Shown one piece after another: positions 28,335 to 57,659 of a stretch of 64,000 nt of DNA (positions within the stretch are counted from its first letter, which is position 1; every line of letters begins with the position of its first letter). Origin of the DNA: a phage. The notes under the pieces are model-generated. The model was not told the origin of the DNA. It searched no databases and saw only the letters and a list, made by a program, of their open reading frames with translations. A program made the position numbers and the translations under genes. The stretch lies in the sequence record PV730300.1. One strand, 5' to 3'.

Positions 28335-28937
28335 TTATGGACATTCATACCATTCTTTTTTACCACCGAAGGCCATCACCACATCACAAATATCCAGACC
28401 AGCTTTACCTACACCATATGCTTTCAGCTTCCATTCCCCATCTTCACGAACCAAGGAAGCCACGTGGCAGATTGTGTTGCCAGCTACTTCAGGAGCCAGG
28501 AAGTCAAAATCCAGAATTTCCACATTGCGCTCGGAGTCGAAGATTTTAAGCATACCTTCAGAAGCATGACCAAAACGTTTCAGACCTGTATCATCATCAA
28601 TGGTCAGGACAAAGGCAATCTCTTGTGCATCAGGAGAGATTTTAGCCAGAGTAATATCAATCTGCTCCATGCTGCCAGTTCCATCACGAACATCGTCACC
28701 AGCGAAGGTAGAACGTTCAGGATCAAACTTGTTAGCATAGCAAACCAGGTGACGTGCAGACAGCATTTCAGGATTGCCAGCGGCATTGTGACGACAAACC
28801 AGTGCACTTACATCCAGATCCAGTTTAGAATCAGATTTCCAAGAGAATTCCAGGCGCAGTTCTTTCAGAGCCGGAGCAACTTTCTTCAGGGAAATTTTTT
28901 CGCTAGAGCCTTTTTTCAGGGAAATTTTATCAGTCAT
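28335..28937 (-). CDS. TerD-family protein (200 aa)
   Basis: N-terminal ISLKK repeats and GDDVRDGTGSMEQIDI...LTIDDD Ca-binding-like acidic motifs typical of TerD domains. Confidence 0.65.
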   Translation of the reverse strand: MTDKISLKKGSSEKISLKKVAPALKELRLEFSWKSDSKLDLDVSALVCRHNAAGNPEMLSARHLVCYANKFDPERSTFAGDDVRDGTGSMEQIDITLAKISPDAQEIAFVLTIDDDTGLKRFGHASEGMLKIFDSERNVEILDFDFLAPEVAGNTICHVASLVREDGEWKLKAYGVGKAGLDICDVVMAFGGKKEWYECP

Positions 28938-28952
28938 CTTTTGTCTCCTCTA

Positions 28953-29222
28953 TTATTTAAGTGTAATACCAGTTACAGTCAATTCTACTTCCAAAAGCTT
29001 AGATGTGTTTTGGATTGATACTAATTGTGCATGATGGTTTAGTTCTACAGCAGAACAATCATTTTCCCCATCATCTACTTTTAAATAAACAATGATTTCA
29101 CTAAGGTCTAAACCATTTTCGTCAAATGCATTTTCATAGACGAAAGTATCTCCTACATCCAAATCTTTAATGGTAAGGCATCGTTTATTTACTTTTTGCT
29201 CATCAATTTCGAAGTTTAACAC
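28953..29222 (-). CDS. hypothetical protein, paralog of 30244-30522 (89 aa)
   Basis: Shares KDLDVGDTF...LEVELTVTGITLK pattern with 30244-30522. Confidence 0.45.
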   Translation of the reverse strand: MLNFEIDEQKVNKRCLTIKDLDVGDTFVYENAFDENGLDLSEIIVYLKVDDGENDCSAVELNHHAQLVSIQNTSKLLEVELTVTGITLK

Positions 29223-29451
29223 TTCTTCCTCCTAATGTTATCTCCGGTTTGTATATACGAAGAATTATAGCATTTTCATTTTCTTTGTCAACCCATTCTT
29301 CATAATCGGGCCATACATGAATCTCTACTCTACTTACAATATCTTCCATTCGCACAGTCCCAATGAAATACTCTTTGAGACTGCGTATAATGAAAGCTTC
29401 TCTCTCGCGCCAATAATTTTCTATGACTTGAGAGGCAAGCTCGTCGATCAT
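29203..29451 (-). CDS. hypothetical protein (82 aa)
   Basis: ORF coupled to neighbours. Confidence 0.4.
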   Translation of the reverse strand: MIDELASQVIENYWREREAFIIRSLKEYFIGTVRMEDIVSRVEIHVWPDYEEWVDKENENAIILRIYKPEITLGGRSVKLRN

Positions 29452-30242
29452 TTTTTAGCACCTACTTTAACAACCCACTCTCCGAACTCTTCAGATAAGA
29501 GTTTGTCATAAAGCTCTGAATCTGTCAAGTCTAAATCTTTAATGCCAATAAAACCAACATTATCATAAGCATTTGCCAGTTCTTTCAGGAAGCCAAACTT
29601 CTCATTACCAACGCCAACCATGAACCAATAGATAGGCTTATTCTTATTTTCTTCAATAAGACGACGAACAGCACTAGGATCACCATTCTCACCATCCGTC
29701 TGGAAGAATACAACACCAGGGGTAACGTCAGCACCTGGTTCAGATACAGCTACAACTTTTTCACGCTCTACAGACACTGTTTCAGTTTTACCAAGCAGAC
29801 GATTAAAGAAGCCTTTCTTTGGAGCCTCCTCTTGTACCACTTGTTTAGTGGTAATATATTTAGTAACAGTGCCAAAATACTCATCGTAGATATCCGCCAT
29901 TACAGGGGCGTAATTTGTTCCACCTCCGATACGAACATTACGCATACATTTACCAACATAGTCATCGTAAACATCTGCTGTTGCTGGAGTAAGCTCTTGG
30001 GAACTCGTATTGAAGGCCCACATATCAATTTGTTGATTATCGTCGAACAGCATACCAAAAGGAAGCAGTTTACCTACAAAATCACTCACTACCCCACTAG
30101 AATATAGACCATGCATACTACCAGAAATATCTAGAGCACATGCTACACGAAGAACAATCTTACCTTCATTCAGGTTCTTATTCTTTTTCAGAGAGAAAGC
30201 AAGGTTTTCTTGACGTTTTTTCAGGCTGATTTTCTCGGACAT
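29448..30242 (-). CDS. vWA-domain protein (TerY/TerF-like) with TerD-like N-terminus (264 aa)
   Basis: MIDAS-type DISGSM motif; N-terminal EKISLKK as in TerD family. Confidence 0.55.
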   Translation of the reverse strand: MSEKISLKKRQENLAFSLKKNKNLNEGKIVLRVACALDISGSMHGLYSSGVVSDFVGKLLPFGMLFDDNQQIDMWAFNTSSQELTPATADVYDDYVGKCMRNVRIGGGTNYAPVMADIYDEYFGTVTKYITTKQVVQEEAPKKGFFNRLLGKTETVSVEREKVVAVSEPGADVTPGVVFFQTDGENGDPSAVRRLIEENKNKPIYWFMVGVGNEKFGFLKELANAYDNVGFIGIKDLDLTDSELYDKLLSEEFGEWVVKVGAKK

Positions 30243-30243
30243 A

Positions 30244-30522
30244 TTATTTCTCCTTCTTAAGTGTAATATTGGTAACTTCTAAATCTACTTCCACCATATT
30301 TGTATCTGGTGGGATGCAATGAGTATAGCCTCGTTGTGCTAGTGATCCATTAATACAAATCGCACTGTTTGTGGAATTTTTAATGAACACCAAGTTACGG
30401 TAGGTATCCAACCCTGCGTCTTCATAGGCATCATAATACATGAATGTGGCCCCTACGTCAAGATCTTCGAAAGCAATAGGTAAATCCTGACACTTTTCTT
30501 CTTGAATATTGAATCTAAACAC
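30244..30522 (-). CDS. hypothetical protein, paralog of 28953-29222 (GTG start)
   Basis: GGAGG then GTG start gives an N-terminus aligned with its paralog; longer track ORF would overlap the upstream gene by about 70 nt. Confidence 0.45.
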   Translation of the reverse strand: MFRFNIQEEKCQDLPIAFEDLDVGATFMYYDAYEDAGLDTYRNLVFIKNSTNSAICINGSLAQRGYTHCIPPDTNMVEVDLEVTNITLKKEK

Positions 30523-31078
30523 GCATACCTCCTCTACCAATTTTGAAGCCCAAATCGTAAGCTTCCTTAGTGATCTTTTGTAACTCACTTATAGGAAGTG
30601 TTACAAGAGGATCATCTTCTTCAATTTCCATCTTGTCATCTTCTGTTTCAATGAGAGTATTATGCACTTTGTGATAAGGGTTGTCAACACGTTTAAACTT
30701 ATTCTTTTCTGTGCTGAAAAAACAATCTGGATCTTCTTCACCATCACCCCAACCTTGATTAGGATCTCCGTCAGATTGTTCTGTAGGGATTTCACCTGTA
30801 AAGTACTCTTCCAGCACCATAGCGATACCGTCCCTTGGATTTGAGGAATGCATTAAATCACAAACCTTACCCCAATCCATAGCCCATTCGAACCGTTCAC
30901 GAACGCCATTTTCATCCTCCTTTCCAGAGAAAACACAACCATAACTATCATAGTTGCCATACATCTCTTCAATAACAGCACCGTCCTTCAAAAGAAAGAG
31001 ATAACAAGGTGATCCGTCGAAAGAAGTAGAAAGGGCAGCTTTGCCCGATTCCTTACACAAAAAACTAAAACAACCCAT
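30515..31078 (-). CDS. hypothetical acidic protein (187 aa)
   Basis: ORF; Asp/Glu-rich C-terminal half. Confidence 0.45.
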   Translation of the reverse strand: MGCFSFLCKESGKAALSTSFDGSPCYLFLLKDGAVIEEMYGNYDSYGCVFSGKEDENGVRERFEWAMDWGKVCDLMHSSNPRDGIAMVLEEYFTGEIPTEQSDGDPNQGWGDGEEDPDCFFSTEKNKFKRVDNPYHKVHNTLIETEDDKMEIEEDDPLVTLPISELQKITKEAYDLGFKIGRGGMRV

Positions 31079-31281
31079 TACAAACCCTCCTTCAGATTAT
31101 CAAGAGCTACAGTGGTTTCACAAAAGTCTCCATACGTTTTATGATGTTCCAGAAAAGCTTCGGGTCCACCCCAATCATTGTCTTGTGTATTCCAGCCATC
31201 AATAAAAGCATCTTCAATGATTGTGATCAGTTCTTGTCGGGTTAACTGGATAATATTAGGGTCGTTATCGTAGTTAAACAT
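31078..31281 (-). CDS. hypothetical protein (67 aa)
   Basis: ORF coupled to neighbours. Confidence 0.4.
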   Translation of the reverse strand: MFNYDNDPNIIQLTRQELITIIEDAFIDGWNTQDNDWGGPEAFLEHHKTYGDFCETTVALDNLKEGL

Positions 31282-31447
31282 CCTCTTCCTCCTCTAAAAT
31301 ATGGAACCCGTAATTACAATAGTCCTGAAAGGTTTCGTGCGCAAGATCTTCTATATCCTCTTGAGACATATCATCTTCAATTTCGATATCCACAACCTCA
31401 TTGCATCCACACCAAGCAGTTTCAATACTCACTCGTAATATTTTCAT
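31274..31447 (-). CDS. small acidic protein (57 aa), not in ORF track
   Basis: ATG overlaps the upstream stop (TAATG); ends overlapping the next start. Confidence 0.3.
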   Translation of the reverse strand: MKILRVSIETAWCGCNEVVDIEIEDDMSQEDIEDLAHETFQDYCNYGFHILEEEEDV

Positions 31448-31641
31448 TACTCCTCCTCATTGAAGTCAATATCTGCAAGGAGTTGGAATTTACGGAAGTT
31501 ACGACAACCTTCATAAATATAACAATCACGACAAACTGCTAGAACACTTGGGGGATATATGCCTCCCATCGGTGCGAATCGTTTTTCGTCATCATAACGG
31601 ACACCAATGTCTTCATCAATTATATAGATACGGATTCTCAT
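31447..31641 (-). CDS. hypothetical protein (64 aa)
   Basis: ORF coupled to neighbours. Confidence 0.4.
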   Translation of the reverse strand: MRIRIYIIDEDIGVRYDDEKRFAPMGGIYPPSVLAVCRDCYIYEGCRNFRKFQLLADIDFNEEE

Positions 31642-32750
31642 TTACCAAGCCCTCGTTTCACAGCAGCTACCATCCCGTCTTCCAGAGATTGAACTTCATT
31701 AATATAATCAACACGAGCAGCACGGGCTTCCGTATTGATGCGGTTAGTTTCTTCCAACATCTTAACCAAGTTTTCCTGATCGTGACGCAGAGTTTCAATA
31801 TCCAACACTTGACGGTTAGCCAGTGCTGCTGCTTCGATTTGATTCTGTGTGGCAAGATCGCTACCCAGTTTAATTGCCAGGTTAAATTCATCAAGAACGT
31901 TATTCTGCGTCTCTGCTGCTTTCATTTGACGTAAGCTTTCGATATACATTGAGAAGTTAGCAGAGTAAGCAGGAATAACATTATTTACTATGTTACGCGC
32001 AGATCGCATTAAGCTTGCAGAAACTTTTTGCATACCTTGTACACGCGGTCCCATTTGGACACACAGTAGGCGCAATGCTTTTAAATCTGCAATACGAATC
32101 TCCAGAAGATCCAAAGTATCTCGGATCACTTGTCGCTGTTCTACTGCATCTTCTGGAAGAGCAGCCAAAACTTGTTCTTCTTTTTCATAGGTTGCTGTTA
32201 GAAGCTGCATATCTCGGTTCAAACTTGCAGCATATTGTCCAATAGCTTGATGTAGCTTTTCAAGATATACCAAGGAATCTTCTTCTTTGCGAATATCCAT
32301 TTGAAGGTTCTTTACCAACTCTTCAATACGGTTATTAACATTATCAAACTCCCCGAACAGGTCTTCTTTCATACCCATAACTTTTTTAATGAGTTTAGTA
32401 ATACCTTTGCTTTGTTTAATAGAGTTTGGATCAAGTTGTTTTGCCTGTTTAATCAAAGCTGTGAGTCGTTCACTCATCTGATCGCCTTGATTACTACGTT
32501 GATGTTTTAATACCTCGGCATTCAAGGAACGCAAGGTTGTTCCTGCCTCTGCCCCAATCTCTTCGATCTCTTGTCGGGTCATAGAAGGCAAAACTGGAAC
32601 TTCTTGCGGTGCTGCTGGTGCGTAAACAGGACTGGCATCTAACACGCTTGGAGCGAATACAGATTTACTTGCATCTGTTGTTGCAGCGAATACACTCATT
32701 TCAGACTTCTTCTGACCACCAGTAGCTGCTTTTAAAAATGGACTTGTCAT
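31638..32750 (-). CDS. TelA-like (toxic anion resistance family) protein (370 aa)
   Basis: Size and extended coiled-coil character typical of TelA/KlaA proteins; sits with TerD, vWA and TerC genes. Confidence 0.5.
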   Translation of the reverse strand: MTSPFLKAATGGQKKSEMSVFAATTDASKSVFAPSVLDASPVYAPAAPQEVPVLPSMTRQEIEEIGAEAGTTLRSLNAEVLKHQRSNQGDQMSERLTALIKQAKQLDPNSIKQSKGITKLIKKVMGMKEDLFGEFDNVNNRIEELVKNLQMDIRKEEDSLVYLEKLHQAIGQYAASLNRDMQLLTATYEKEEQVLAALPEDAVEQRQVIRDTLDLLEIRIADLKALRLLCVQMGPRVQGMQKVSASLMRSARNIVNNVIPAYSANFSMYIESLRQMKAAETQNNVLDEFNLAIKLGSDLATQNQIEAAALANRQVLDIETLRHDQENLVKMLEETNRINTEARAARVDYINEVQSLEDGMVAAVKRGLGK

Positions 32751-33337
32751 TCTTCATTCTCCTCTTCTGCATCTCTTATATATGGTGAAACACCGTACTC
32801 TTTAGCTACTTTAACCCAATCATCCCATTTATACAACCATAATTTTCCTTCAGTTCCTTCTTTATCTGATTTCAACCACATATTAGGTTGCTTGCCTGGA
32901 TACATGCGATTAGGTTTACGATTATAACCTCTGACACATCTTGTCGCAAACCTATCTACCAGAACAAGAACATACTTATATTCGTGGTTCAACGGTTCTT
33001 TGGAAGTGGCTTTAGGATTAGCCCCTAATTCTGCTGCCAGTTTTTGCCAATGAGCACCGTGTCTACTAAATTTACCCATACAACCATCAATAGCATGAGC
33101 AATTTCGTGCTTCATTGTATCCACGATCATATCTCTTGTAGAGTTCTTATGCAAGTGCCAATTTACAACAACAATTTTATCTCGGTAGTTGCACCAACCG
33201 AAAGAGTTATTCACTTTGTTTCTAACACAAGCTTTATATCCTGCTTCACGTAACATGTTGTAGTAAACAGGAAAATCTTCTTTTATTTCCTGCATCACTT
33301 CCCACCACAAGAGTTGCAAGTCTCTCTCGGTATGCAT
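32747..33337 (-). CDS. SprT-like zinc metallopeptidase (196 aa)
   Basis: HEIAH (HExxH) motif in a SprT-like setting; overlaps the TelA-like gene stop. Confidence 0.5.
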   Translation of the reverse strand: MHTERDLQLLWWEVMQEIKEDFPVYYNMLREAGYKACVRNKVNNSFGWCNYRDKIVVVNWHLHKNSTRDMIVDTMKHEIAHAIDGCMGKFSRHGAHWQKLAAELGANPKATSKEPLNHEYKYVLVLVDRFATRCVRGYNRKPNRMYPGKQPNMWLKSDKEGTEGKLWLYKWDDWVKVAKEYGVSPYIRDAEEENEE

Positions 33338-33340
33338 AAC

Positions 33341-33934
33341 TTACACCTTAAAAGCGAAATACGTGGTCGTGGCTTCAAAATCAGGGCCAGATAAACTTGC
33401 ACTGAAATCTGAAATATTTGTAATTAAAAAGCTTTTATGCATACCTAACACAGCCACGCTTTCAATATCTTCTACTAACATTTCAATCATGTTAGAAACA
33501 TGGCTGAACGTAGAGTTTTGTTTTTTGATGGTGTAGAAAGAAAGATTCCCACCTGCTGTATAAGATACCTCTTCAAAATCTTTAATCGTATATTGTGTGC
33601 CATCAGTAAAGAAAATGGTAGCTTTATTAGTAGCACGTTTCTTGTTTTTTGGTCCTTTTTTACGTTTACTGCGAGTAGGCAAACCGTTTGGAAATACCGT
33701 AGCTACAAATTCTTCAGGAGAAACCTCCTTACCGAAATCATAACCGTAAGAAACAGCGTCTATAAACTCGTCGTCTTCATTTTTAAAATAATGAAAATAG
33801 GGCCAATTTGAGAGATTATCGAGCATCTTATGCTCATCCACAGCAGAGAACGTATCCCTCAAAGCACGTGTGATTTGTAAAGCATTAGGCAAACTTTTAA
33901 CACCTGTAATGGAAGTACGAATAGAAATTGTCAT
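33341..33934 (-). CDS. hypothetical protein (197 aa)
   Basis: ORF; basic KRKKGPKNKKR patch. Confidence 0.45.
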   Translation of the reverse strand: MTISIRTSITGVKSLPNALQITRALRDTFSAVDEHKMLDNLSNWPYFHYFKNEDDEFIDAVSYGYDFGKEVSPEEFVATVFPNGLPTRSKRKKGPKNKKRATNKATIFFTDGTQYTIKDFEEVSYTAGGNLSFYTIKKQNSTFSHVSNMIEMLVEDIESVAVLGMHKSFLITNISDFSASLSGPDFEATTTYFAFKV

Positions 33935-33948
33935 TGTTTTTCTCCTTA

Positions 33949-34386
33949 TTAACGTCGCTTGCTACGAGATGAACTCTTTTTACTTAAAGGGCTATTGTAA
34001 GATTTACGAGTTGTATAGCTACTATTTGTTTTAAAAGTTTGTCTCGGCTTTTCATAAGTTTTTATCTCTTGCTTAGGCTTACCATAAAAATTAGTTTTCG
34101 GTTTAGGTGTATTATAATGCTTATTAATAATCGTTCTGTTATCGTTATAATCCCCACTGTTACGATTACCACCACCACTCATCATATGCCCTAACAACAT
34201 ACCTGTAGCAAACTCACCAACACCGCTACTACTAGAACCGCCACCATTGTTGATAATAGTTGTATCTCCGTCAGATCCTTGTTGAGCGTATTGTTGAGGA
34301 GGTTGTTGGTATTGTGCAGGATTTGTTTCATCCTCGCAAGCTGTTAAAAAGATACAACCAATTAAAATCAGTGCTAGTTTTTTCAT
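33949..34386 (-). CDS. lipoprotein, Gly/Ser-rich (start at internal ATG)
   Basis: MKKLALILIGCIFLTAC signal peptide with lipobox cysteine; GAGGAAAG RBS before this ATG. Confidence 0.5.
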   Translation of the reverse strand: MKKLALILIGCIFLTACEDETNPAQYQQPPQQYAQQGSDGDTTIINNGGGSSSSGVGEFATGMLLGHMMSGGGNRNSGDYNDNRTIINKHYNTPKPKTNFYGKPKQEIKTYEKPRQTFKTNSSYTTRKSYNSPLSKKSSSRSKRR

Positions 34387-34573
34387 ATTTGCTTTCCTCA
34401 TTTTGACTATTAATACACCTGTGTTTGAAATCTCCAGAGAAGCAATAAAGTTGCTCTCCATCTCGGTATAAACTCACTTTACTGCCGTTGATTACGCTTG
34501 TCAATACAAAAATTACAACAAACAACCCTATTGCAAAACAAATATTTTCAAACACAACCAACAAGTATTTCAT
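34328..34573 (-). CDS. small membrane protein (81 aa)
   Basis: One hydrophobic helix; overlaps the lipoprotein gene start. Confidence 0.3.
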   Translation of the reverse strand: MKYLLVVFENICFAIGLFVVIFVLTSVINGSKVSLYRDGEQLYCFSGDFKHRCINSQNEESKYEKTSTDFNWLYLFNSLRG

Positions 34574-34920
34574 TTTAAAAATACCTCATCATCAGTTTCA
34601 TTATCCCAGAAGAACAAATCCCAACCATTCGGATCATTCCATTTGGCTGCTGGAGAAGTCCATATTTGTTCGATATCAATATTCAAAACTTCACCGTTTC
34701 GTTTTGAAACAGCTTTAGTTAATTCCCAACGAGATACAGGCTCTACTTCTCCTGAACCACTTCCACAACAAGCTACAACATTAGGAGGCAAATTAATTGG
34801 ATCTTTGGTCACAATCATAACGCTTACCCCAGGGTAAACTTTTGAAAGATAATCTAAAACGTAATCCACATCACCAGATAAATCCCAAATAAGTTCTTGA
34901 ATTTCATCAAAATTATTCAT
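34570..34920 (-). CDS. hypothetical protein (116 aa)
   Basis: ORF following the TerC gene. Confidence 0.45.
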   Translation of the reverse strand: MNNFDEIQELIWDLSGDVDYVLDYLSKVYPGVSVMIVTKDPINLPPNVVACCGSGSGEVEPVSRWELTKAVSKRNGEVLNIDIEQIWTSPAAKWNDPNGWDLFFWDNETDDEVFLK

Positions 34921-34962
34921 AAGTCTCTCCTATAAAATAGCCTCCCGAAGGAGGCTCATCTA

Positions 34963-35937
34963 TTAAACAGCAGCTTCTTCTTTTTCAGGGAAGATAAAGC
35001 TTGCAATAACACCCAGAGCTAATGTGCCTAGAACAATCATCAGACTTACGTTAGGGGAAATATCATGCGGGAGGAATGACCACTTGGCATGAAGTGTTTC
35101 ACCGAACGGGTGATACATAAGTTTAGCACCAACAAACACCAGAACCACAGCAACAGCTTTCTCTAAGTGAACCAGATATTTCACAGCTACACTCAACACA
35201 AAGAAAAGTGCACGTAAACCAAGAACAGCCATCAGCATTGCAGAATAAACTAGCAGAGGTTCTTGTGTCACACCGATCACAGCCGGAACTGAATCAAAAG
35301 AGAAGACAATATCTGTAAGCTCAATAACAAACACACAAAGAAGAGCAGGAGTTGCATATTTAATACCATTCTTAATGGTGATGAACTTTTCACCATCCAG
35401 CGCATTGTGCACAGGCAGAACTTTACCTACTAAACGAACAGCCCAATGCTTAGAGTAATCAATATCCTCTTCTTCGTCACCACCTTTGATGATAGCCACG
35501 GCAGACCAAGCTACAATCAAACCGAACAACACTTGGACCGACCAATGAAGGTTAAACAAAGCGGTCCCTGCTGCAACAAAAATACCTCGGAAGACAATGG
35601 CTCCTGCAATCCCCCAAAGTAAAATCTTATGTTGGAGATGTGTACTCTTAATTCCAAAGCTTGCAAAAATTGCCATGAACACCATCAGGTTATCTACAGA
35701 AAGACTCTTTTCCAACACATAGCCACTTAAGAAAAGCGCGGCAAACTCTTTACCATGTTCTACCCAAATGAATGCGTAATATCCTAAAGCTAAAGCAATC
35801 CAAAAAACAGACCAAAGCAAAGCAGATTTAATTCCAATTTCTTTATTCTCTTTATGACCAAAGAAATCGATACCAATAGACAATGCCAAAATACCAACTA
35901 AAACAACTACATCAATAATTGGGAAACCGAGTTGCAT
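34963..35937 (-). CDS. TerC-family integral membrane protein (324 aa)
   Basis: Multiple transmembrane segments and the TerC-type EKSLSVDNLMVF motif; preceded by an early-type promoter-hairpin cassette. Confidence 0.75.
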   Translation of the reverse strand: MQLGFPIIDVVVLVGILALSIGIDFFGHKENKEIGIKSALLWSVFWIALALGYYAFIWVEHGKEFAALFLSGYVLEKSLSVDNLMVFMAIFASFGIKSTHLQHKILLWGIAGAIVFRGIFVAAGTALFNLHWSVQVLFGLIVAWSAVAIIKGGDEEEDIDYSKHWAVRLVGKVLPVHNALDGEKFITIKNGIKYATPALLCVFVIELTDIVFSFDSVPAVIGVTQEPLLVYSAMLMAVLGLRALFFVLSVAVKYLVHLEKAVAVVLVFVGAKLMYHPFGETLHAKWSFLPHDISPNVSLMIVLGTLALGVIASFIFPEKEEAAV

Positions 35938-36013
35938 TCTTTTCTCCTCTCTTTGCGGGGAACTATTCCCCGCTTCATGTGATATATCTTACTCTTTTTA
36001 AGAACTGTGTCAA
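35938..36013 (-). promoter_or_regulatory. early-type promoter-hairpin-RBS cassette driving the TerC gene
   Basis: On minus strand: TTGACA, 16-nt spacer, TAAGAT, ATATCACAT, GCGGGGAA-tag-TTCCCCGC hairpin, AAAGAGAGGAGAAAAGA, ATG; same layout as the 57.6-64 kb cassettes. Confidence 0.6.
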
Positions 36014-36016
36014 CAC

Positions 36017-36238
36017 TTATTTTGTTGAATGAGAGGAAAAGATTCCTCGTAATACCGCCAGAATAAACGAAACACAAACCACGGTCCAGAAGGTTACTGG
36101 GACAGTGATATCTGCATGACCCATAACTTCAGCAACATAGTTGTAAGCCAGCAACAGTAACCAAGCTGGAATCAAACTAAGCATAAAAGCAATAACAAAA
36201 AAGCTTACCACTGCAACAATACCTGCAAAAACACCCAT
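36017..36238 (-). CDS. small membrane protein (73 aa)
   Basis: Two hydrophobic helices. Confidence 0.4.
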   Translation of the reverse strand: MGVFAGIVAVVSFFVIAFMLSLIPAWLLLLAYNYVAEVMGHADITVPVTFWTVVCVSFILAVLRGIFSSHSTK

Positions 36239-36250
36239 ACTAATCTCCTC

Positions 36251-36724
36251 TTAAAGTTTATAAATAGTTACATCGTGACCTGTTTTTACTAAAGTTTCTT
36301 CAATCATCACTTGGATGATAGCCCAATTACCTCCAGCATATCCAGCGCCAATCATAGGTAAGCCGATCTTACATTTTTGGTCACGGAGAAGCAAATCATT
36401 AGCCATAGCTATTAGTGCATCGTAAAGTGCATCATAGTCCAACTGACGACCTTTAGCATTGTATCCGTAACGGTATTGCCCGTATAGATTATATACCAAA
36501 GGGTCTGATTGTTCGTCTGGCACCCCTAAACTAAAAGAACCTAACTTACTTTGATCACCAGCCATTGTGTCTAAATCTGCCGCATATGCATAAGGGAATG
36601 CTCGTTTAATTTGCGGAGCAATTCCTGCTCCCATGTTACACATACAATTGCAACAATGAGCAATAACAGTTACTTCACCTGCTTTAGCGGCATCAATAAG
36701 ATTACCTGTTTTCGTTTTAAGCAT
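36251..36724 (-). CDS. macrodomain protein, TARG1/OARD1-like (157 aa)
   Basis: IAHCCNCMCNMGAGIA and C-terminal IGLPMIGAGYAGGNW...DVTIYKL align by eye with TARG1 (LAHCISEDCRMGAGIA ... LSMPRIGCGLDRLQW...DIKITVYTL). Confidence 0.6.
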   Translation of the reverse strand: MLKTKTGNLIDAAKAGEVTVIAHCCNCMCNMGAGIAPQIKRAFPYAYAADLDTMAGDQSKLGSFSLGVPDEQSDPLVYNLYGQYRYGYNAKGRQLDYDALYDALIAMANDLLLRDQKCKIGLPMIGAGYAGGNWAIIQVMIEETLVKTGHDVTIYKL

Positions 36725-36736
36725 TTTAGCTCCTTA

Positions 36737-37564
36737 TTACAGAATGTGTTGTTTTGTGTAACGATCCAAGAATTCAAAGTTTTCAGCATACTTTGAAATT
36801 CGGTTGTAACCTTCTCCCAAGCATCCAAAGAAAAGTTGCTCTACATAGTAGTGTGGCAATTGACTAAGAATGATTTTGAAGTCTTCATGATTTTGGCCCA
36901 TAAGATATTTAATAGGACGAACAAGACACTGTGCATCACGTTCTTCATTAATCATTTTAACAAATGCTTCTGGTGTATTAATGTAGTTAAAATTCAGTTT
37001 AGCTTCGGTATCTGCTTGATTACCTTCATATTTTGCAAAATACAGGAAGTAAACATCATTTTTAACTTGATTTTCATCAAGAATCTCAATCAGTTTGTCT
37101 TCATGCGTTCCAGTGATATTTACATCATCAATGAATACAAGCTTCTTATCACCCCAGAATTCTTTGTTGCAGTAGAATGTATCCCCATCAATAAGTTTCT
37201 TACGACTAGCTTTATCCAAGAAACCATAATCGTTGATATAGCTAACTTTACGATGAATAATGTCCAGTTCTGCTGAACGACCTTGATCATATTGTGATTG
37301 CAACATGTTAAAGTAATTAATAAAATGATCTGTCATCATTGTTGCAGCATTATGCACATGGTTGTAAGGAGAAGGAATGATAACAAATTGTTCCCCAATA
37401 TGTTTCATTGCCACTTGAGCAAAAAACTGAAGTGCCAATTCTTTACCCATACGACGCGCGGCTTGGTTACTACCAAATTTCAATTTTGAATAATCTTGGA
37501 TATCAAAAGTAGCAGTTTCCAGGTCATCAAATTTATTTGCAAAAATTTGAGTTTGATTACGCAT
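36737..37564 (-). CDS. phosphoribosyltransferase-domain protein (275 aa)
   Basis: KLVFIDDVNITGTHED resembles the PRPP-binding motif of type I PRTases. Confidence 0.55.
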   Translation of the reverse strand: MRNQTQIFANKFDDLETATFDIQDYSKLKFGSNQAARRMGKELALQFFAQVAMKHIGEQFVIIPSPYNHVHNAATMMTDHFINYFNMLQSQYDQGRSAELDIIHRKVSYINDYGFLDKASRKKLIDGDTFYCNKEFWGDKKLVFIDDVNITGTHEDKLIEILDENQVKNDVYFLYFAKYEGNQADTEAKLNFNYINTPEAFVKMINEERDAQCLVRPIKYLMGQNHEDFKIILSQLPHYYVEQLFFGCLGEGYNRISKYAENFEFLDRYTKQHIL

Positions 37565-38213
37565 TTACAATTTCTCCTCTTTTAAGTTTCTCTAGTAAGT
37601 CGTTAGGGTTCTTAATATGACAGAAGTTAAATCCTAAGTCAACACATTTTCCATCATATTCTTCACTATCGCCTACGTGCAATACTTCGTGCCCTAACAG
37701 AGGGATCGGAGAATACGTGAGCGTGCGAGCAAAGAATCGCGGATCTGGTTTACAAAGTAAAGCTTCATCCGAGAAATGGGTGAACTCAAAACAATTCCAA
37801 CTATCAAACTTACAAGCACGACGCAGGATATCCCCTGATATAAAGTTGGTATTGCTCTTAATACTCAAATCATAACGTCCCGAAAGATACAGCAAGTACA
37901 TCGGCAGATCCACGGCTACGTGTGGTGGAAACTTAAGGAACCACTGTTCACACTCAAAACGAAGCTTTGCAGACTTCCAAGGCGTTATCCCAAGTTCAGA
38001 ACCAAGTCTTTCCCAGGCGTATGCTGCACACTCGGCTTTGCCTTGAAGTGCTGCATTATCCAGTTCCTTTTTGATCTTCTTATAAGCTGCTCTTGCTTCC
38101 ACTTCTGTAATATCTCCATATTTTGCGATAGTCCAGGCTCGCATATCTGCGTAATTGGAGTTTGCTGTGATCAGTGTGTTCCATACATCAAAAGAGATAT
38201 GTTTAATAGTCAT
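37557..38213 (-). CDS. HAD-superfamily hydrolase-like protein (218 aa)
   Basis: N-terminal FDVWNTL (haloacid-dehalogenase-type motif I variant) and distal HVGDS motif. Confidence 0.5.
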   Translation of the reverse strand: MTIKHISFDVWNTLITANSNYADMRAWTIAKYGDITEVEARAAYKKIKKELDNAALQGKAECAAYAWERLGSELGITPWKSAKLRFECEQWFLKFPPHVAVDLPMYLLYLSGRYDLSIKSNTNFISGDILRRACKFDSWNCFEFTHFSDEALLCKPDPRFFARTLTYSPIPLLGHEVLHVGDSEEYDGKCVDLGFNFCHIKNPNDLLEKLKRGEIVNA

Positions 38214-53962: not shown

Positions 53963-53988
53963 AAACCCGCTTCGGCGGGTTTTGTTAT
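53963..53988 (+). terminator. rho-independent terminator
   Basis: AAACCCGC-ttcg-GCGGGTTT hairpin followed by TGTTATATT. Confidence 0.6.
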
Positions 53989-54015: not shown

Positions 54016-55023
54016 TTGTTAGATATGCCAGTAAAGAAGAGTATTGAAACATATATGGAAGAATGTAAGCCGATAGCTGAGGCTAAAGGGATTACCATTC
54101 TCGGCACGTATGGAGAAGATAAAGGTGTGCATACGAAGATGATCAATCGTTGTGAGCATGGTCATGAATGGAATACTACAACGTTTCACAGTTTTAAAGA
54201 TGGTCGAGGTTGTCCTAAGTGCGCCTACAGAGAACGTTCGAAAAAGAGAAGCAAAGCTATCACTATTCCAGACCAGCAACACATACAAGATTTTATGAAG
54301 GTAGGTAAATTTAAGGAAGGCACTATTTTCACCAATACAGGGGAACGTAAAGGGTGTGATATAGTATGGATGGTTGAATGTCCTGTTTGCTCTCATGATG
54401 AATATGTGGAAGCTGGGGTGTGTGATGGTAAATTCTATGCTACCGGAAGTCATCTTAAACGTGGGTGTCTCCCTTGCCGCTGTTCTACGAGTTACAAATA
54501 CACAGAGGATCAGACCACCTATAGAACAAGAAAGGAAGTAGAAAGGAGAGGATATATATGGGTAGGATGGATCGGTAAACCTTCAACAATGGGTAAGTTT
54601 AAATATGGATGTAAGGAGCACGGGGAACAGATAGGGCGTGCAGATGGTTTGCTACATAAGGGGAGTGGGTGTCCGCAGTGCGGGGGCCAAAACCAACAAC
54701 AATGTTACATTAATCATATTTATGATGAAGATGGTATTCTTTGTGCACTGAAGTTTGGTATTGCCAATAGTAGTGATCGCCGTATCAAAGAACAGAATAG
54801 CCGCAATGTGTTTACTATGAGACAAGTTCAAGTGTGGCAGTTCCCCACTGTGAAGCAGTGCAAAAATTCAGAAAAGTATTGCAAAAAGGTGTTAGACACA
54901 GAAGCAGTGAGCAAATATGCTATGCCAGACGGCTACACAGAAACAGTGGAGCTATCTTGTTTGGCCTCAATACAAAACATTTATAAACTTTATGGTGGAA
55001 CATTACAGGAGGAAACATGTTAG
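54016..55023 (+). CDS. cysteine-rich multi-zinc-finger protein (335 aa)
   Basis: Several CxxC pairs (GCPKCAY, CPVCSHDE, CLPCRC, GCPQCGG, CKEHG). Confidence 0.45.
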   Translation: MLDMPVKKSIETYMEECKPIAEAKGITILGTYGEDKGVHTKMINRCEHGHEWNTTTFHSFKDGRGCPKCAYRERSKKRSKAITIPDQQHIQDFMKVGKFKEGTIFTNTGERKGCDIVWMVECPVCSHDEYVEAGVCDGKFYATGSHLKRGCLPCRCSTSYKYTEDQTTYRTRKEVERRGYIWVGWIGKPSTMGKFKYGCKEHGEQIGRADGLLHKGSGCPQCGGQNQQQCYINHIYDEDGILCALKFGIANSSDRRIKEQNSRNVFTMRQVQVWQFPTVKQCKNSEKYCKKVLDTEAVSKYAMPDGYTETVELSCLASIQNIYKLYGGTLQEETC

Positions 55024-55382
55024 TTGACGTTCAAATTATGCGCAACGAAAGAATGGACTTCTTTGAAGCAGTAGAGAAACATCTGATCAGATGGGACTAT
55101 GAATTTGTTCCTGCTGGATGTGGACCAGTAGAGCATTTAGCGGAAGACGACGATGTATACATGATCATTCGTCAAGTGTACCAGACAGACCAGTGTGAAG
55201 AAACTCCCGAACTGATTTTGTTTGAGTGTAAAGATCTTGCAAAATATTTTGACTATGGCGGAAAAGAGGGTCATAATCTCTCCAGATACAATAAACGTCT
55301 ACTTATCTTAGACTACATGCGGAACAACAAACACAAACTCATCGACGCAGACGCAGTTTATGGCTACTGGTGGATGGACTAA
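55017..55382 (+). CDS. hypothetical protein (121 aa)
   Basis: ORF coupled to upstream gene. Confidence 0.45.
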   Translation: MLVDVQIMRNERMDFFEAVEKHLIRWDYEFVPAGCGPVEHLAEDDDVYMIIRQVYQTDQCEETPELILFECKDLAKYFDYGGKEGHNLSRYNKRLLILDYMRNNKHKLIDADAVYGYWWMD

Positions 55383-55395
55383 CAAAGGAGAAACT

Positions 55396-55584
55396 ATGGC
55401 ACGTTTAGCAGATAACCCTGTATTCTACCCCGTTCTTGATCTTTATGATGAATTGACATATGTTGTGGAGCGGTATAACTACAATGAAGATCTTTTGGAG
55501 ACAAACCTTAAAGTGGTCCTGATGAAAGCCTATCAGAAAGGGCAACGTGAAATTTTGGAGAGTATGAAAAATGCGAATAACTGA
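55396..55584 (+). CDS. hypothetical protein (62 aa, start at internal ATG)
   Basis: AAGGAGAAA RBS before ATG at 55396. Confidence 0.4.
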   Translation: MARLADNPVFYPVLDLYDELTYVVERYNYNEDLLETNLKVVLMKAYQKGQREILESMKNANN

Positions 55585-56113
55585 TGATTATGTATTCTTC
55601 TTTTCACATAAAGATGTGTTTAGTAATTGGTATATTGCACCCTTTACAGAAACCGAACCAGGTTACAATCAAACATTTAATTGTGTCGAACAATATATGA
55701 TGTGGCGTAAAGCTTTGCTTTTTAATGACCACAACACTGCACAGGCTATTCTGACTCATAGCTTGATACGGAAAGATGAGAAGATCCAAGCTTATTACAA
55801 ACGTATGGGTAGGGCAGTGTCGGATTTTGATAACAACGTATGGGAAGAGAACCGTGAGCGTATTGTTATGCGAGGTTTATGCTTGAAATATGTACAGAAT
55901 CCAGATTTGTATGCAGACTTACACCTTTACCAATATAAAACGTTTGTTGAAGCAAGCCCCTACGATAAGGTTTACGGAATTGGAATGGGGATGTATGAAC
56001 CAGGGGTGCTAAACCCTGCCACCTGGAAAGGGCAGAATCTTTTAGGCAAATATCATAATAAACTGATCGAAATACTTTTCCCAGACAAAATACCGCAAAG
56101 ACGATATTTGTGA
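55571..56113 (+). CDS. NADAR (YbiA-like) domain protein (180 aa)
   Basis: FFFSHKDVFSNWY, CVEQYMMWRKA, NVWEE and FVEASPYDKVYGIGMG match the conserved NADAR blocks. Confidence 0.6.
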   Translation: MRITDDYVFFFSHKDVFSNWYIAPFTETEPGYNQTFNCVEQYMMWRKALLFNDHNTAQAILTHSLIRKDEKIQAYYKRMGRAVSDFDNNVWEENRERIVMRGLCLKYVQNPDLYADLHLYQYKTFVEASPYDKVYGIGMGMYEPGVLNPATWKGQNLLGKYHNKLIEILFPDKIPQRRYL

Positions 56114-56167: not shown

Positions 56168-56207
56168 AAGGCTCCTACAGCACCGTAGAGAGCCTGTTAT
56201 TTTGTCT
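56168..56207 (+). terminator. rho-independent terminator closing the plus-strand block
   Basis: AGGCTC...GAGCCT extended hairpin with internal CTAC/GTAG pairing, followed by GTTATTTTGTCTT. Confidence 0.5.
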
Positions 56208-56355
56208 TATACAAACACTTATCTTTTTCAGTTTGCATCACTAGAATTAGATCTAGGTGGGTTCCTGAAGGTTTACCAATAAGATTAAAGGTTATCTCAA
56301 ATTACCACTACCTGTTATCTCAAAAAATCCCTCAAATTATTTAAACTTTTTAAGA

Positions 56356-56543
56356 ATTTACAAAAGTGAAAGTTGAAAACCAAAATTTAAAGTTTAGGAA
56401 AATTATCTTAAAATGTCAGATACAAAACAAAACTCAAAAGTCAAGGAAAATTTTAAAAATTTTGCGCGCCCACAGTATTTAAAGTTTTTTTGCTTTTACA
56501 AAAATGAAAGTACAAAAGCAAAATTTAAAGTTTACAAAAATTT
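56356..56543. repeat. two copies of a ~45-bp AT-rich direct repeat (about 56356-56405 and 56493-56543)
   Basis: acaaaagtgaaagttgaaaaccaaaatttaaagtttaggaaaatta vs acaaaaatgaaagtacaaaagcaaaatttaaagtttacaaaaattta. Confidence 0.6.
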
Positions 56544-56554
56544 ATGCAGATGGG

Positions 56555-56664
56555 AATGAGAAGAGTTCTCATATGGAAATGCAAATGATAATGATTCGCA
56601 TTTAGGTTTATAAATGAGATTGATTCTTATTTGATAAGGTAAATGATAAGCATTCTCATTTAGA
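56555..56664. repeat. four iteron-like imperfect palindromes, about 27-bp periodicity
   Basis: gaatgagaagagttctcatatgg / aaatgataatgattcgcatttagg / aaatgagattgattcttatttga / aaatgataagcattctcatttaga. Confidence 0.6.
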
Positions 56665-56895
56665 GAATGACGCGCAGGGGTGGTGTTTGTCTCGCGCTCC
56701 CGTGTCCCCTCGCCATGTAATAAGAATAACAGATCCAGCCAGGAAAGCAAGCGATTATTTTTATCTTTACATTTCTTTACAAATATATAGCGCCCAGCCT
56801 CCCGGCGATCGACCTTCCAACCGGTGCCCCTGGTATGTTAGCCCCGCCTTTACGCCGTGGGGGTGGCGCTTCCTCTTCTGTATGTAAAACAGTAT

Positions 56896-56935
56896 AAGCC
56901 CGATCCCTGGGCTTGTCAAGATTATTTTTTGTTTT
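56896..56935. terminator. bidirectional hairpin terminator in GC-rich block
   Basis: AAGCCC-gatccctg-GGGCTT hairpin; T-run downstream on plus strand, TGTTTT downstream on minus strand after the stop of 56922-57188. Confidence 0.4.
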
Positions 56936-57188
56936 CTTGCCAGGATAAGACACCTAACCAAAAATGCATATCGCCCCGCGCCCCTGGTGGGATCTTGCTT
57001 TCCCCGCCGCCACTGCAAGCCCATAAATAACCATCAGCGAACGGATCAAAGTTTTCTATCTCTTCCACCTTATGATCGCCCAGGTTGAGAACGGTTTCAA
57101 CCTTTAAGCCCGTTGCGCTTGCTACCTGGTGCACCGTGCCGCCTTGCCAGCCCAATGAGTGCATAAGGTGTAATGTAGTATTTGTCAT
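56922..57188 (-). CDS. small hypothetical protein (88 aa), divergent from the early array
   Basis: Coherent GC-rich codon usage; upstream TTGCTG-17-TATCAT, then GCGCC...GGCGC hairpin and AAAGGG RBS, a diverged version of the early cassette. Confidence 0.4.
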   Translation of the reverse strand: MTNTTLHLMHSLGWQGGTVHQVASATGLKVETVLNLGDHKVEEIENFDPFADGYLWACSGGGESKIPPGARGDMHFWLGVLSWQENKK

Positions 57189-57296
57189 GGTATCGCCCTT
57201 TCTTTGTTGTGCGCCCTGGTTGGCGCGGTAGAAAGATGATAGCCGTTTCCTTTATATACAGCAAGCAAAAAAGAAAATAAAAAAGATTAAAAAATG

Positions 57297-57325
57297 GTTG
57301 ACGTTCCCCAGGGGGTAGCGTATTA
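57297..57325 (+). promoter_or_regulatory. sigma70-like promoter with about 135-nt leader for first early-array gene
   Basis: TTGACG, 17-nt spacer containing CCCCAGGGGG, TATTAT. Confidence 0.4.
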
Positions 57326-57461
57326 TTCATCTTGTCGAGGGGGGCGAGGCACAACGACAATAAACAAAAGGCGGGCGCGATGCAGGACGGGCAAAGGTGA
57401 GGATCTCCATAATCCACCGTCCACCAACAAAAAACATCATTCATAACCTGGAATTAAGATC

Positions 57462-57659
57462 ATGGCAACATTGCACATAGTAGCGAAAGCAGGACAAATC
57501 AGCGTAATTGTAAACGGTTTTACTGAATTCAGTCATCCCCAGGATGATCATGAAACGGTTTTATCTTTTATTGATTCCTTGTTAGAAATGGGAGTCATTA
57601 CAGAAGATCAGCACGCTACAAAATGCAAGCGCGTTAATCAAATTGCAGAAATAGAATAA
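57462..57659 (+). CDS. early small protein (65 aa)
   Basis: ORF ends 6 nt before the next cassette -35. Confidence 0.5.
   Translation: MATLHIVAKAGQISVIVNGFTEFSHPQDDHETVLSFIDSLLEMGVITEDQHATKCKRVNQIAEIE

Follow-up and report, generated by a model that had tools for sequence, protein, structure and literature searches.

Phages Bas60-62, the phi92-like phages now placed in the genus Justusliebigvirus of the subfamily Stephanstirmvirinae, carry a NADAR protein called AdfN^Bas60 (Johannesman et al. 2025, PMC11825919). Expressed ectopically in E. coli, AdfN^Bas60 neutralizes DarT1 with no requirement for any other phage factor, and it allows RB69, T5 and Bas25 to plate on DarTG1 again, whereas it does not help T5 on DarTG2 (PMC11825919). 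Removal of ADP-ribose from guanine in DNA together with growth rescue on DarTG1 was found only for AdfN^T4, AdfN^Bas32 and AdfN^Bas60, and full AdfN^T4 activity requires the context of a T-even infection (PMC11825919). T4 itself needs adfN on DarTG1 and a second gene, Tk.4 (AdfM), on DarTG2 (preprint 10.1101/2025.11.20.689424). Other members of the superfamily include the DarG1 antitoxins, E. coli YbiA and a eukaryotic guanine-ADP-ribose hydrolase, the NADAR of Phytophthora nicotianae (PnNADAR, PDB 8BAU). DarG1 and the T4 NADARs remove only guanine-linked ADP-ribose (G-ADPr); NADAR-family and YbiA-type enzymes erase G- and C-linked ADP-ribose on DNA and RNA (PMC12945103).

The DNA that we analyzed, a 64-kb stretch referred to here as the window, belongs to a phAPEC8-like E. 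coli myovirus of the genus Phapecoctavirus, also within the Stephanstirmvirinae. In the 3.5 kb surrounding the gene of interest, phages BI-EHEC, PNJ1809-36 and Mt1B1_P17 show 95-98% identity to it, and phAPEC8 shows 89.5%. The gene and its expression signals are as follows:

55571..56113, plus strand: adfN-like gene for a predicted stand-alone NADAR-family ADP-ribosyl glycohydrolase of 180 aa (ORF, Pfam, AF2, Foldseek, residue mapping, identity to bas60_0111)
55557..55562, plus strand: ribosome-binding motif GGAGAG, 8 nt 5' of the NADAR ATG (read from the sequence)
56169..56205, plus strand: intrinsic-terminator-like hairpin and U-rich tail at the end of the transcription unit whose last gene is the NADAR gene (RNA fold)

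In the ORF list of the window, the reading frame from ATG to stop occupies exactly 55571..56113, and its product matches the Pfam NADAR profile (PF08719) with an E value of 7.8e-36 and 124.2 bits, against a cut-off of 35.1, over profile positions 3-154 of 163. It also matches phrog_1017 (E 7.5e-52). The NADAR domain begins at about residue 8 of 180 and is the only domain in the protein. Searched as a single sequence, the protein matched one solved structure, PnNADAR 8BAU (E 3.8e-15); a profile built from 40 homologues raised this match to 2e-35 and added E. coli YbiA (2B3W) at 8e-16. An AlphaFold2 model computed on the alignment of the 40 homologues has a mean pLDDT of 95.6 and a pTM of 0.89. 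When this model was compared with the PDB using Foldseek, 8bau (TM 0.78, E 2.3e-9) and 2b3w (TM 0.68) were recovered, and all other matches had E values above 2. The preliminary description had placed a NADAR-domain protein at this position, and the ORF, the strong profile match and the fold bear it out; we regard the assignment as beyond reasonable doubt. Neither a second NADAR nor a macro paralogue was found in the 64-kb window, and the neighbors that we scanned (the AAA ATPase, the endonuclease and the small proteins) include no ART domain or DarT toxin.

The active site is conserved as well. In PnNADAR, ADP-ribose is contacted by E43, K50, K75, G78, R79, V81, Y84, D86, W89, R93, E125, D130 and W133 (Schuller et al., PMC11543638). 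The equivalent window residues, in the same order, are E40, K47, K77, G80, R81, V83, F86, N88, W91, R95, E127, D132 and Y135. Ten of the 13 (E40, K47, K77, G80, R81, V83, W91, R95, E127 and D132) are identical, and the remaining three are conservatively replaced, with F86 for Tyr, N88 for Asp and Y135 for Trp. Across the 40 homologues, seven of these residues (E40, K47, K77, G80, W91, E127 and D132) do not vary and R81 hardly does; we predict that E40, K47, K77, R81, W91, R95, E127 and D132 are the key residues. The Glu and Lys of the ExxxxxxK motif (E43/K50 in PnNADAR, E36/K43 in T4) are present along with the acidic residue equivalent to PnNADAR E125, and window E40 and K47 correspond to E36 and K43, the residues that were mutated in AdfN^T4 (PMC11825919). 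Missing catalytic residues, which the preliminary description had named as a refutation, are thus not seen: the catalytic and ligand-binding residues of the characterized PnNADAR are conserved.

At the key acidic position the window NADAR has the Glu variant, E127, where DarG1 has Asp and T4-type phage NADARs have His (PMC11543638). K77 is the counterpart of K115 in E. coli C7 DarG1, a residue that is dispensable for catalysis but needed for rescue from DarT1 in vivo (PMC11543638). This position is Lys in the window NADAR, in the Bas60 protein bas60_0111, in PnNADAR and in the aligned phage and bacterial homologues, whereas YbiA has Ala and T4 gp30.3 has Gln; these two NADARs are reported to leave uninfected cells unprotected from DarT1. 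A Lys here may correlate with the ability to rescue uninfected cells, a lead that we draw ourselves from a small number of sequences.

The closest relative linked to an experimentally studied NADAR is bas60_0111 (QXV83846.1; Bas60 is MZ501100.1), annotated as a 'putative YbiA-like N-glycosidase'. It is 59% identical to the window NADAR over 172 aa (E 2e-69) and holds the same position, ending a plus-strand block after a gene for an AAA/FtsH-like ATPase and a hypothetical gene. No other NADAR was found when all 150 kb of Bas60 were searched by tblastn with the window NADAR, YbiA and T4 gp30.3 as queries. As the only NADAR in Bas60, bas60_0111 almost certainly corresponds to AdfN^Bas60. The window NADAR is orthologous to it and syntenic with it. 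Both come from the same phage subfamily, both are stand-alone NADAR domains of about 180 aa with the same active-site residues, and they have in common Glu127, Lys77, the Trp-to-Tyr change at 135 and a seven-residue insertion before helix 72-81. They differ in genus (Justusliebigvirus versus Phapecoctavirus) and at 41% of aligned positions; additionally, the Bas60 NADAR has an extra six-residue insertion in an N-terminal loop, and Bas60 lacks the two small ORFs that separate the endonuclease gene from the NADAR gene in the window.

The other described systems are more distant. In a neighbor-joining tree of 21 sequences, the window NADAR and bas60_0111 form a single clade nested among NADARs of other phages and stand-alone NADARs of bacteria; PnNADAR, YbiA and T4 gp30.3 branch off at increasing distance, in that order. 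PnNADAR is the best PDB match by both structure and sequence, although it is eukaryotic, only about 34% identical to the window NADAR and different in its C-terminal region. YbiA (PDB 2B3W) shares the NADAR fold, a Glu at the E127 position and a TIGR02464 score above the cut-off, but is about 30% identical, lacks the Lys77 equivalent and is encoded in a LexA-controlled chromosomal operon. AdfN^T4 (gp30.3) is likewise a phage orphan NADAR directed against DarTG1 and has the Glu and Lys of the ExxxxxxK motif; its identity to the window NADAR is just 16-19%, it has His in place of Glu127 and Gln in place of Lys77, and it gives no TIGR02464 match, unlike the window NADAR. With Glu rather than His at position 127 and such low identity, the window protein lies outside the T4 gp30.3 clade, and T4-type NADARs and the window NADAR were acquired independently. 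DarG1 (E. coli C7 and G. lovleyi) belongs to the same superfamily, is predicted to catalyze the same reaction (removal of ADP-ribose from guanine N2) and has the K115-equivalent Lys. The window NADAR differs in having no adjacent DarT1, no N-terminal extension and Glu127 instead of Asp (D171 in C7), and its family profile found no DarG1-type NADAR among PDB sequences. By these features it is not a DarG1-type antitoxin.

The gene is widespread and conserved. By tblastn, at least 71 phage records hold the NADAR protein at 80% identity or more, and 719 records match it overall. Copies of about 59% identity are found in phi92-like phages, and copies of 31-46% identity in Vequintavirinae, in myoviruses of Staphylococcus, Listeria, Enterococcus and Bacillus and in other phages. 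The dN/dS ratio is 0.04 against phAPEC8 and 0.06 against Mt1B1_P17, showing strong purifying selection.

Three genes precede the NADAR gene on the same strand:

54016..55023, plus strand: CapR/HNH-like endonuclease gene (ORF, Pfam CapR, PHROGs)
55017..55382, plus strand: small protein of unassigned function (ORF, PHROGs)
55360..55584, plus strand: small protein of 74 aa, function unassigned, overlapping the NADAR start (ORF, PHROGs)

All three (54016..55584) are probably in the same transcript as the NADAR gene. Since the NADAR ORF begins within the preceding 74-aa ORF, sharing 14 nt with its end, the two are likely to be translationally coupled, as judged from their arrangement. About 55 nt 3' of the gene lie the hairpin and its U-rich tail. 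The hairpin (56169-56195) has a folding energy of -21.9 kcal/mol (z -4.8), none of 200 shuffled sequences was equally stable, and the phAPEC8 record has an annotated terminator at the equivalent place. The terminator-like element at 56169-56205 thus indicates that the NADAR gene closes a transcription unit. The preliminary description had put the gene at the end of the plus-strand block, which holds for the transcription unit but not for the strand as a whole: the gene is followed by 1.35 kb of mostly non-coding DNA, and small plus-strand ORFs resume at 57462. A consensus promoter scan returned many weak sites, 35 against 23.7 expected.

Further upstream, the interval that separates the CapR/HNH-like endonuclease gene from that of the AAA ATPase contains a perfect 8-bp GC-rich hairpin, AAACCCGC-TTCG-GCGGGTTT, at 53963-53982. 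Both strands give it a terminator score, and it may divide the plus-strand block into two separate transcripts. The product of 54016-55023, an 'endonuclease' / HNH endonuclease by PHROG, combines a treble-clef zinc finger with two CapR homology domains. Its length differs among related phages (335 aa here, 394 aa for the phAPEC8 protein), which would be typical of a mobile, homing-endonuclease-like gene. The idea that the NADAR belongs to a conserved functional module with the AAA ATPase and the CapR/HNH-like endonuclease was considered and rejected: the three genes are linked within the Stephanstirmvirinae, but not in one Vequintavirinae phage and one Staphylococcus Kayvirus that have NADAR homologues. 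Linkage to all three genes of 54016..55584 is found in Phapecoctavirus alone and not in the more distantly related phages with a NADAR.

The DNA just 3' of the NADAR terminator has features of its own. Positions 56280-56665 form an AT-rich repeat region (24-30% GC) with a pair of 72-nt direct repeats at 56333-56404 and 56471-56542 (82% identity), three repeats of 29 nt and four palindromic sites of about 20 nt, AATGAGAAnnnTTCTCATTT, that start at 56555, 56584, 56613 and 56642 with a spacing of 29 nt. Records of related phages annotate a 'repeat_region' at the equivalent place. Because the array of repeats and palindromes resembles binding sites for a dimeric protein, this putative site array may be an origin or an operator. 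It is followed by a GC-rich island (56650-57450, about 50% GC compared with about 39% for the genome) that is conserved among phAPEC8-like phages and contains one conserved minus-strand ORF (56922..57188; 88 aa; phrog_19316; function unassigned). A host origin of this island was discarded, as megablast gave no match in 5,426 E. coli genomes. No Rfam match indicating a structured RNA was obtained in the 1.35-kb gap at E values up to 1.

The window also encodes a macrodomain protein:

36251..36724, minus strand: candidate partner eraser, a TARG1/SCO6735/DarG-class macrodomain protein of 157 aa (Pfam Macro, PDB matches, PADLOC, T4 Tk.4)

This protein narrowly passes the Pfam Macro cut-off (23.3 bits versus 22). 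Its matches among solved structures are SCO6735 (5e3b, E 5e-13), TARG1/OARD1 (4j5r, 1.7e-6), the Thermus (Taq) DarG (5m31, 3.6e-6) and BT1257, so that the earlier label of 'TARG1-like macrodomain' is a fair one. It is not a full-length DarG: its PADLOC DarG score of 38 bits is far below the full-length cut-off, its NCBIfam DarG score is 33.9 bits against a cut-off of 250, and it lacks the DarT-binding domain. It is 37% identical to T4 Tk.4 (E 1e-21) and 49% identical to bas60_0070. The adfN/adfM pair of T4 means that the logic of two erasers already has a worked example. By analogy, the proposal that the NADAR and the macrodomain serve as two erasers for different bases is plausible, given the T4 precedent and the Tk.4 homologue in this phage; the two genes do not form a single locus: 19 kb separate them, they lie on opposite strands and they belong to different transcription units.

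The macrodomain gene is part of a Ter-like (tellurite-resistance-type) cluster at 28335-38213 on the minus strand, here in a lytic phage, that includes TerD, a vWA-TerF-like protein, TelA, a SprT-like metalloprotease, TerC, the macrodomain, a ComF-like phosphoribosyltransferase (PRTase) and a HAD hydrolase. The trio of macrodomain, PRTase and HAD is present in Bas60 too, and a metabolic role for the macrodomain is possible. Nothing links the NADAR to this cluster. Bas60 additionally has a PRPP-synthetase-like gene adjoining a nicotinamide phosphoribosyltransferase gene, a NARP1-like NAD-reconstitution pair, as well as a sirtuin-family protein (143141-145839; L003:7000-7812), indicating that genes for conflicts over NAD and ADP-ribose are numerous in the Stephanstirmvirinae.

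We propose, with a probability of roughly three in four, that the window NADAR is an AdfN^Bas60 orthologue that strips ADP-ribose from guanine in phage DNA and thereby defeats DarTG1. In this scheme, infection would activate a DarT1-type ADP-ribosyltransferase, which would place ADP-ribose on the N2 amino group of guanine in the phage DNA and so block its replication. The NADAR enzyme would bind the ADP-ribose moiety and hydrolyze the N-glycosidic bond between ribose and guanine, and replication would proceed on the restored, unmodified DNA. K47, K77, R81, W91 and R95 are predicted to bind the phosphates and F86 the adenine, while E40 and E127 would flank the distal ribose. We expect the enzyme to work alone, without other phage factors, and to be inactive on the thymine-linked ADP-ribose made by DarT2. 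The analysis establishes the domain, the fold, the conserved active site, the orthology and synteny with the Bas60 protein and the purifying selection; for the window protein, we infer the substrate, the role in vivo, the timing of expression and the autonomy from other phage factors. The assignment to DarT1 is weakened by the identity of 59% to AdfN^Bas60 and by the Tyr that replaces W133 of PnNADAR. Moreover, guanine-ADPr activity of NADARs in vitro does not always mean protection in vivo, as YbiA and T4 gp30.3 illustrate in uninfected cells. The counter-defense function put forward in the preliminary description agrees with the syntenic, 59%-identical and sole NADAR of Bas60, given that AdfN^Bas60 counters DarTG1 and not DarTG2. 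That idea is supported but not new, and finding the window NADAR in an already known class is no surprise.

The natural substrates may be broader or different. The protein could act on cytidine- or guanine-linked ADP-ribose, in DNA or RNA, deposited by transferases other than DarT1, such as pierisin/ScARP-like toxins or RNA-targeting defense ARTs, with DarT1 reversal as one of several activities or a side activity. We consider this distinctly unlikely as the main function, even though the window NADAR has the Glu127 variant and groups with the NADAR-family branch (PnNADAR and the stand-alone NADARs of bacteria), whose tested members act on both G- and C-linked ADP-ribose, and not with DarG1 or the T4-type proteins, since the tested orthologue, AdfN^Bas60, clearly counters DarTG1. 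To our knowledge, no cytidine-ADP-ribosylating defense system has been described in E. coli, which also counts against it. Such a breadth of substrates extends the anti-DarT1 explanation and does not exclude it. A more general version, which we put forward only tentatively and think unlikely, is that the Stephanstirmvirinae NADAR is a broad de-ADP-ribosylase that, with the AdfM-like macrodomain acting on thymine, would provide near-complete base coverage, including against E. coli defenses yet to be discovered.

The remaining readings fare worse. One is that it is a housekeeping N-glycosidase of the YbiA type, acting on reactive intermediates of the riboflavin pathway as metabolite damage control during infection. 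This would account for the TIGR02464 match ('riboflavin biosynthesis intermediates N-glycosidase', 113 bits against a cut-off of 73.7) and for the several phage records that label the orthologue 'GTP cyclohydrolase II' or COG3236. Both bas60_0111 (109 bits) and PnNADAR (117 bits) exceed the cut-off of this model too, with YbiA itself at 169.5. As the first of these neutralizes DarT1 and the second hydrolyzes guanine-ADPr, the model does not discriminate between functions, and we set the match aside as uninformative. The 'GTP cyclohydrolase II' labels (for example NC_052662.1 gp037 and PQ571289.1) have been carried over in error from RibA-fused COG3236 proteins, since the phage protein holds the NADAR domain only, with no RibA or RibD part. 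In addition, YbiA branches outside the window clade at about 30% identity, the neighboring genes that we scanned contain no riboflavin-pathway domain, and YbiA itself takes off G-ADPr in vitro, all of which makes a riboflavin function highly improbable. We are just as skeptical that the NADAR cleaves an N-ribosylated small molecule in a pathway shared with the macrodomain, the ComF-like PRTase and the HAD phosphatase of the Ter-like cluster. Here as in Bas60, the macrodomain gene adjoins those for the PRTase and HAD hydrolase within the TerD/TerF/TelA/TerC cluster, and some macrodomain homologues in Vibrio phages adjoin a ribose-phosphate pyrophosphokinase gene. The NADAR gene, however, is remote from this group and in a separate unit, distant phages carry it in unrelated contexts, and AdfN^Bas60 works alone in E. 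coli. The shared nucleotide-metabolite pathway raised in the preliminary description thus finds no backing in a context where the two genes are neither co-located nor co-oriented. Finally, the protein might be a non-catalytic binder that blocks an NAD- or ADP-ribose-dependent defense by sequestering a ligand or binding an effector, a kind of role cited for another phage NADAR protein. Catalytic and ligand residues that are intact, invariant in homologues and under strong purifying selection fit an enzyme, and we find this reading exceedingly improbable.

The anti-DarT1 function that we favor rests on a concept and an enzyme class that had been described, as had even the pairing of two erasers, and it poses no new question. 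The NADAR assignment does correct a recurrent mis-annotation of this protein in public records as 'GTP cyclohydrolase II'. If the proposed function is true, the experimentally defined AdfN class would extend to the whole phAPEC8-like genus. These phages, which are often proposed for therapy and biocontrol, would then be predicted to be intrinsically insensitive to DarTG1, and possibly to DarTG2 as well by way of their AdfM-like macrodomain.
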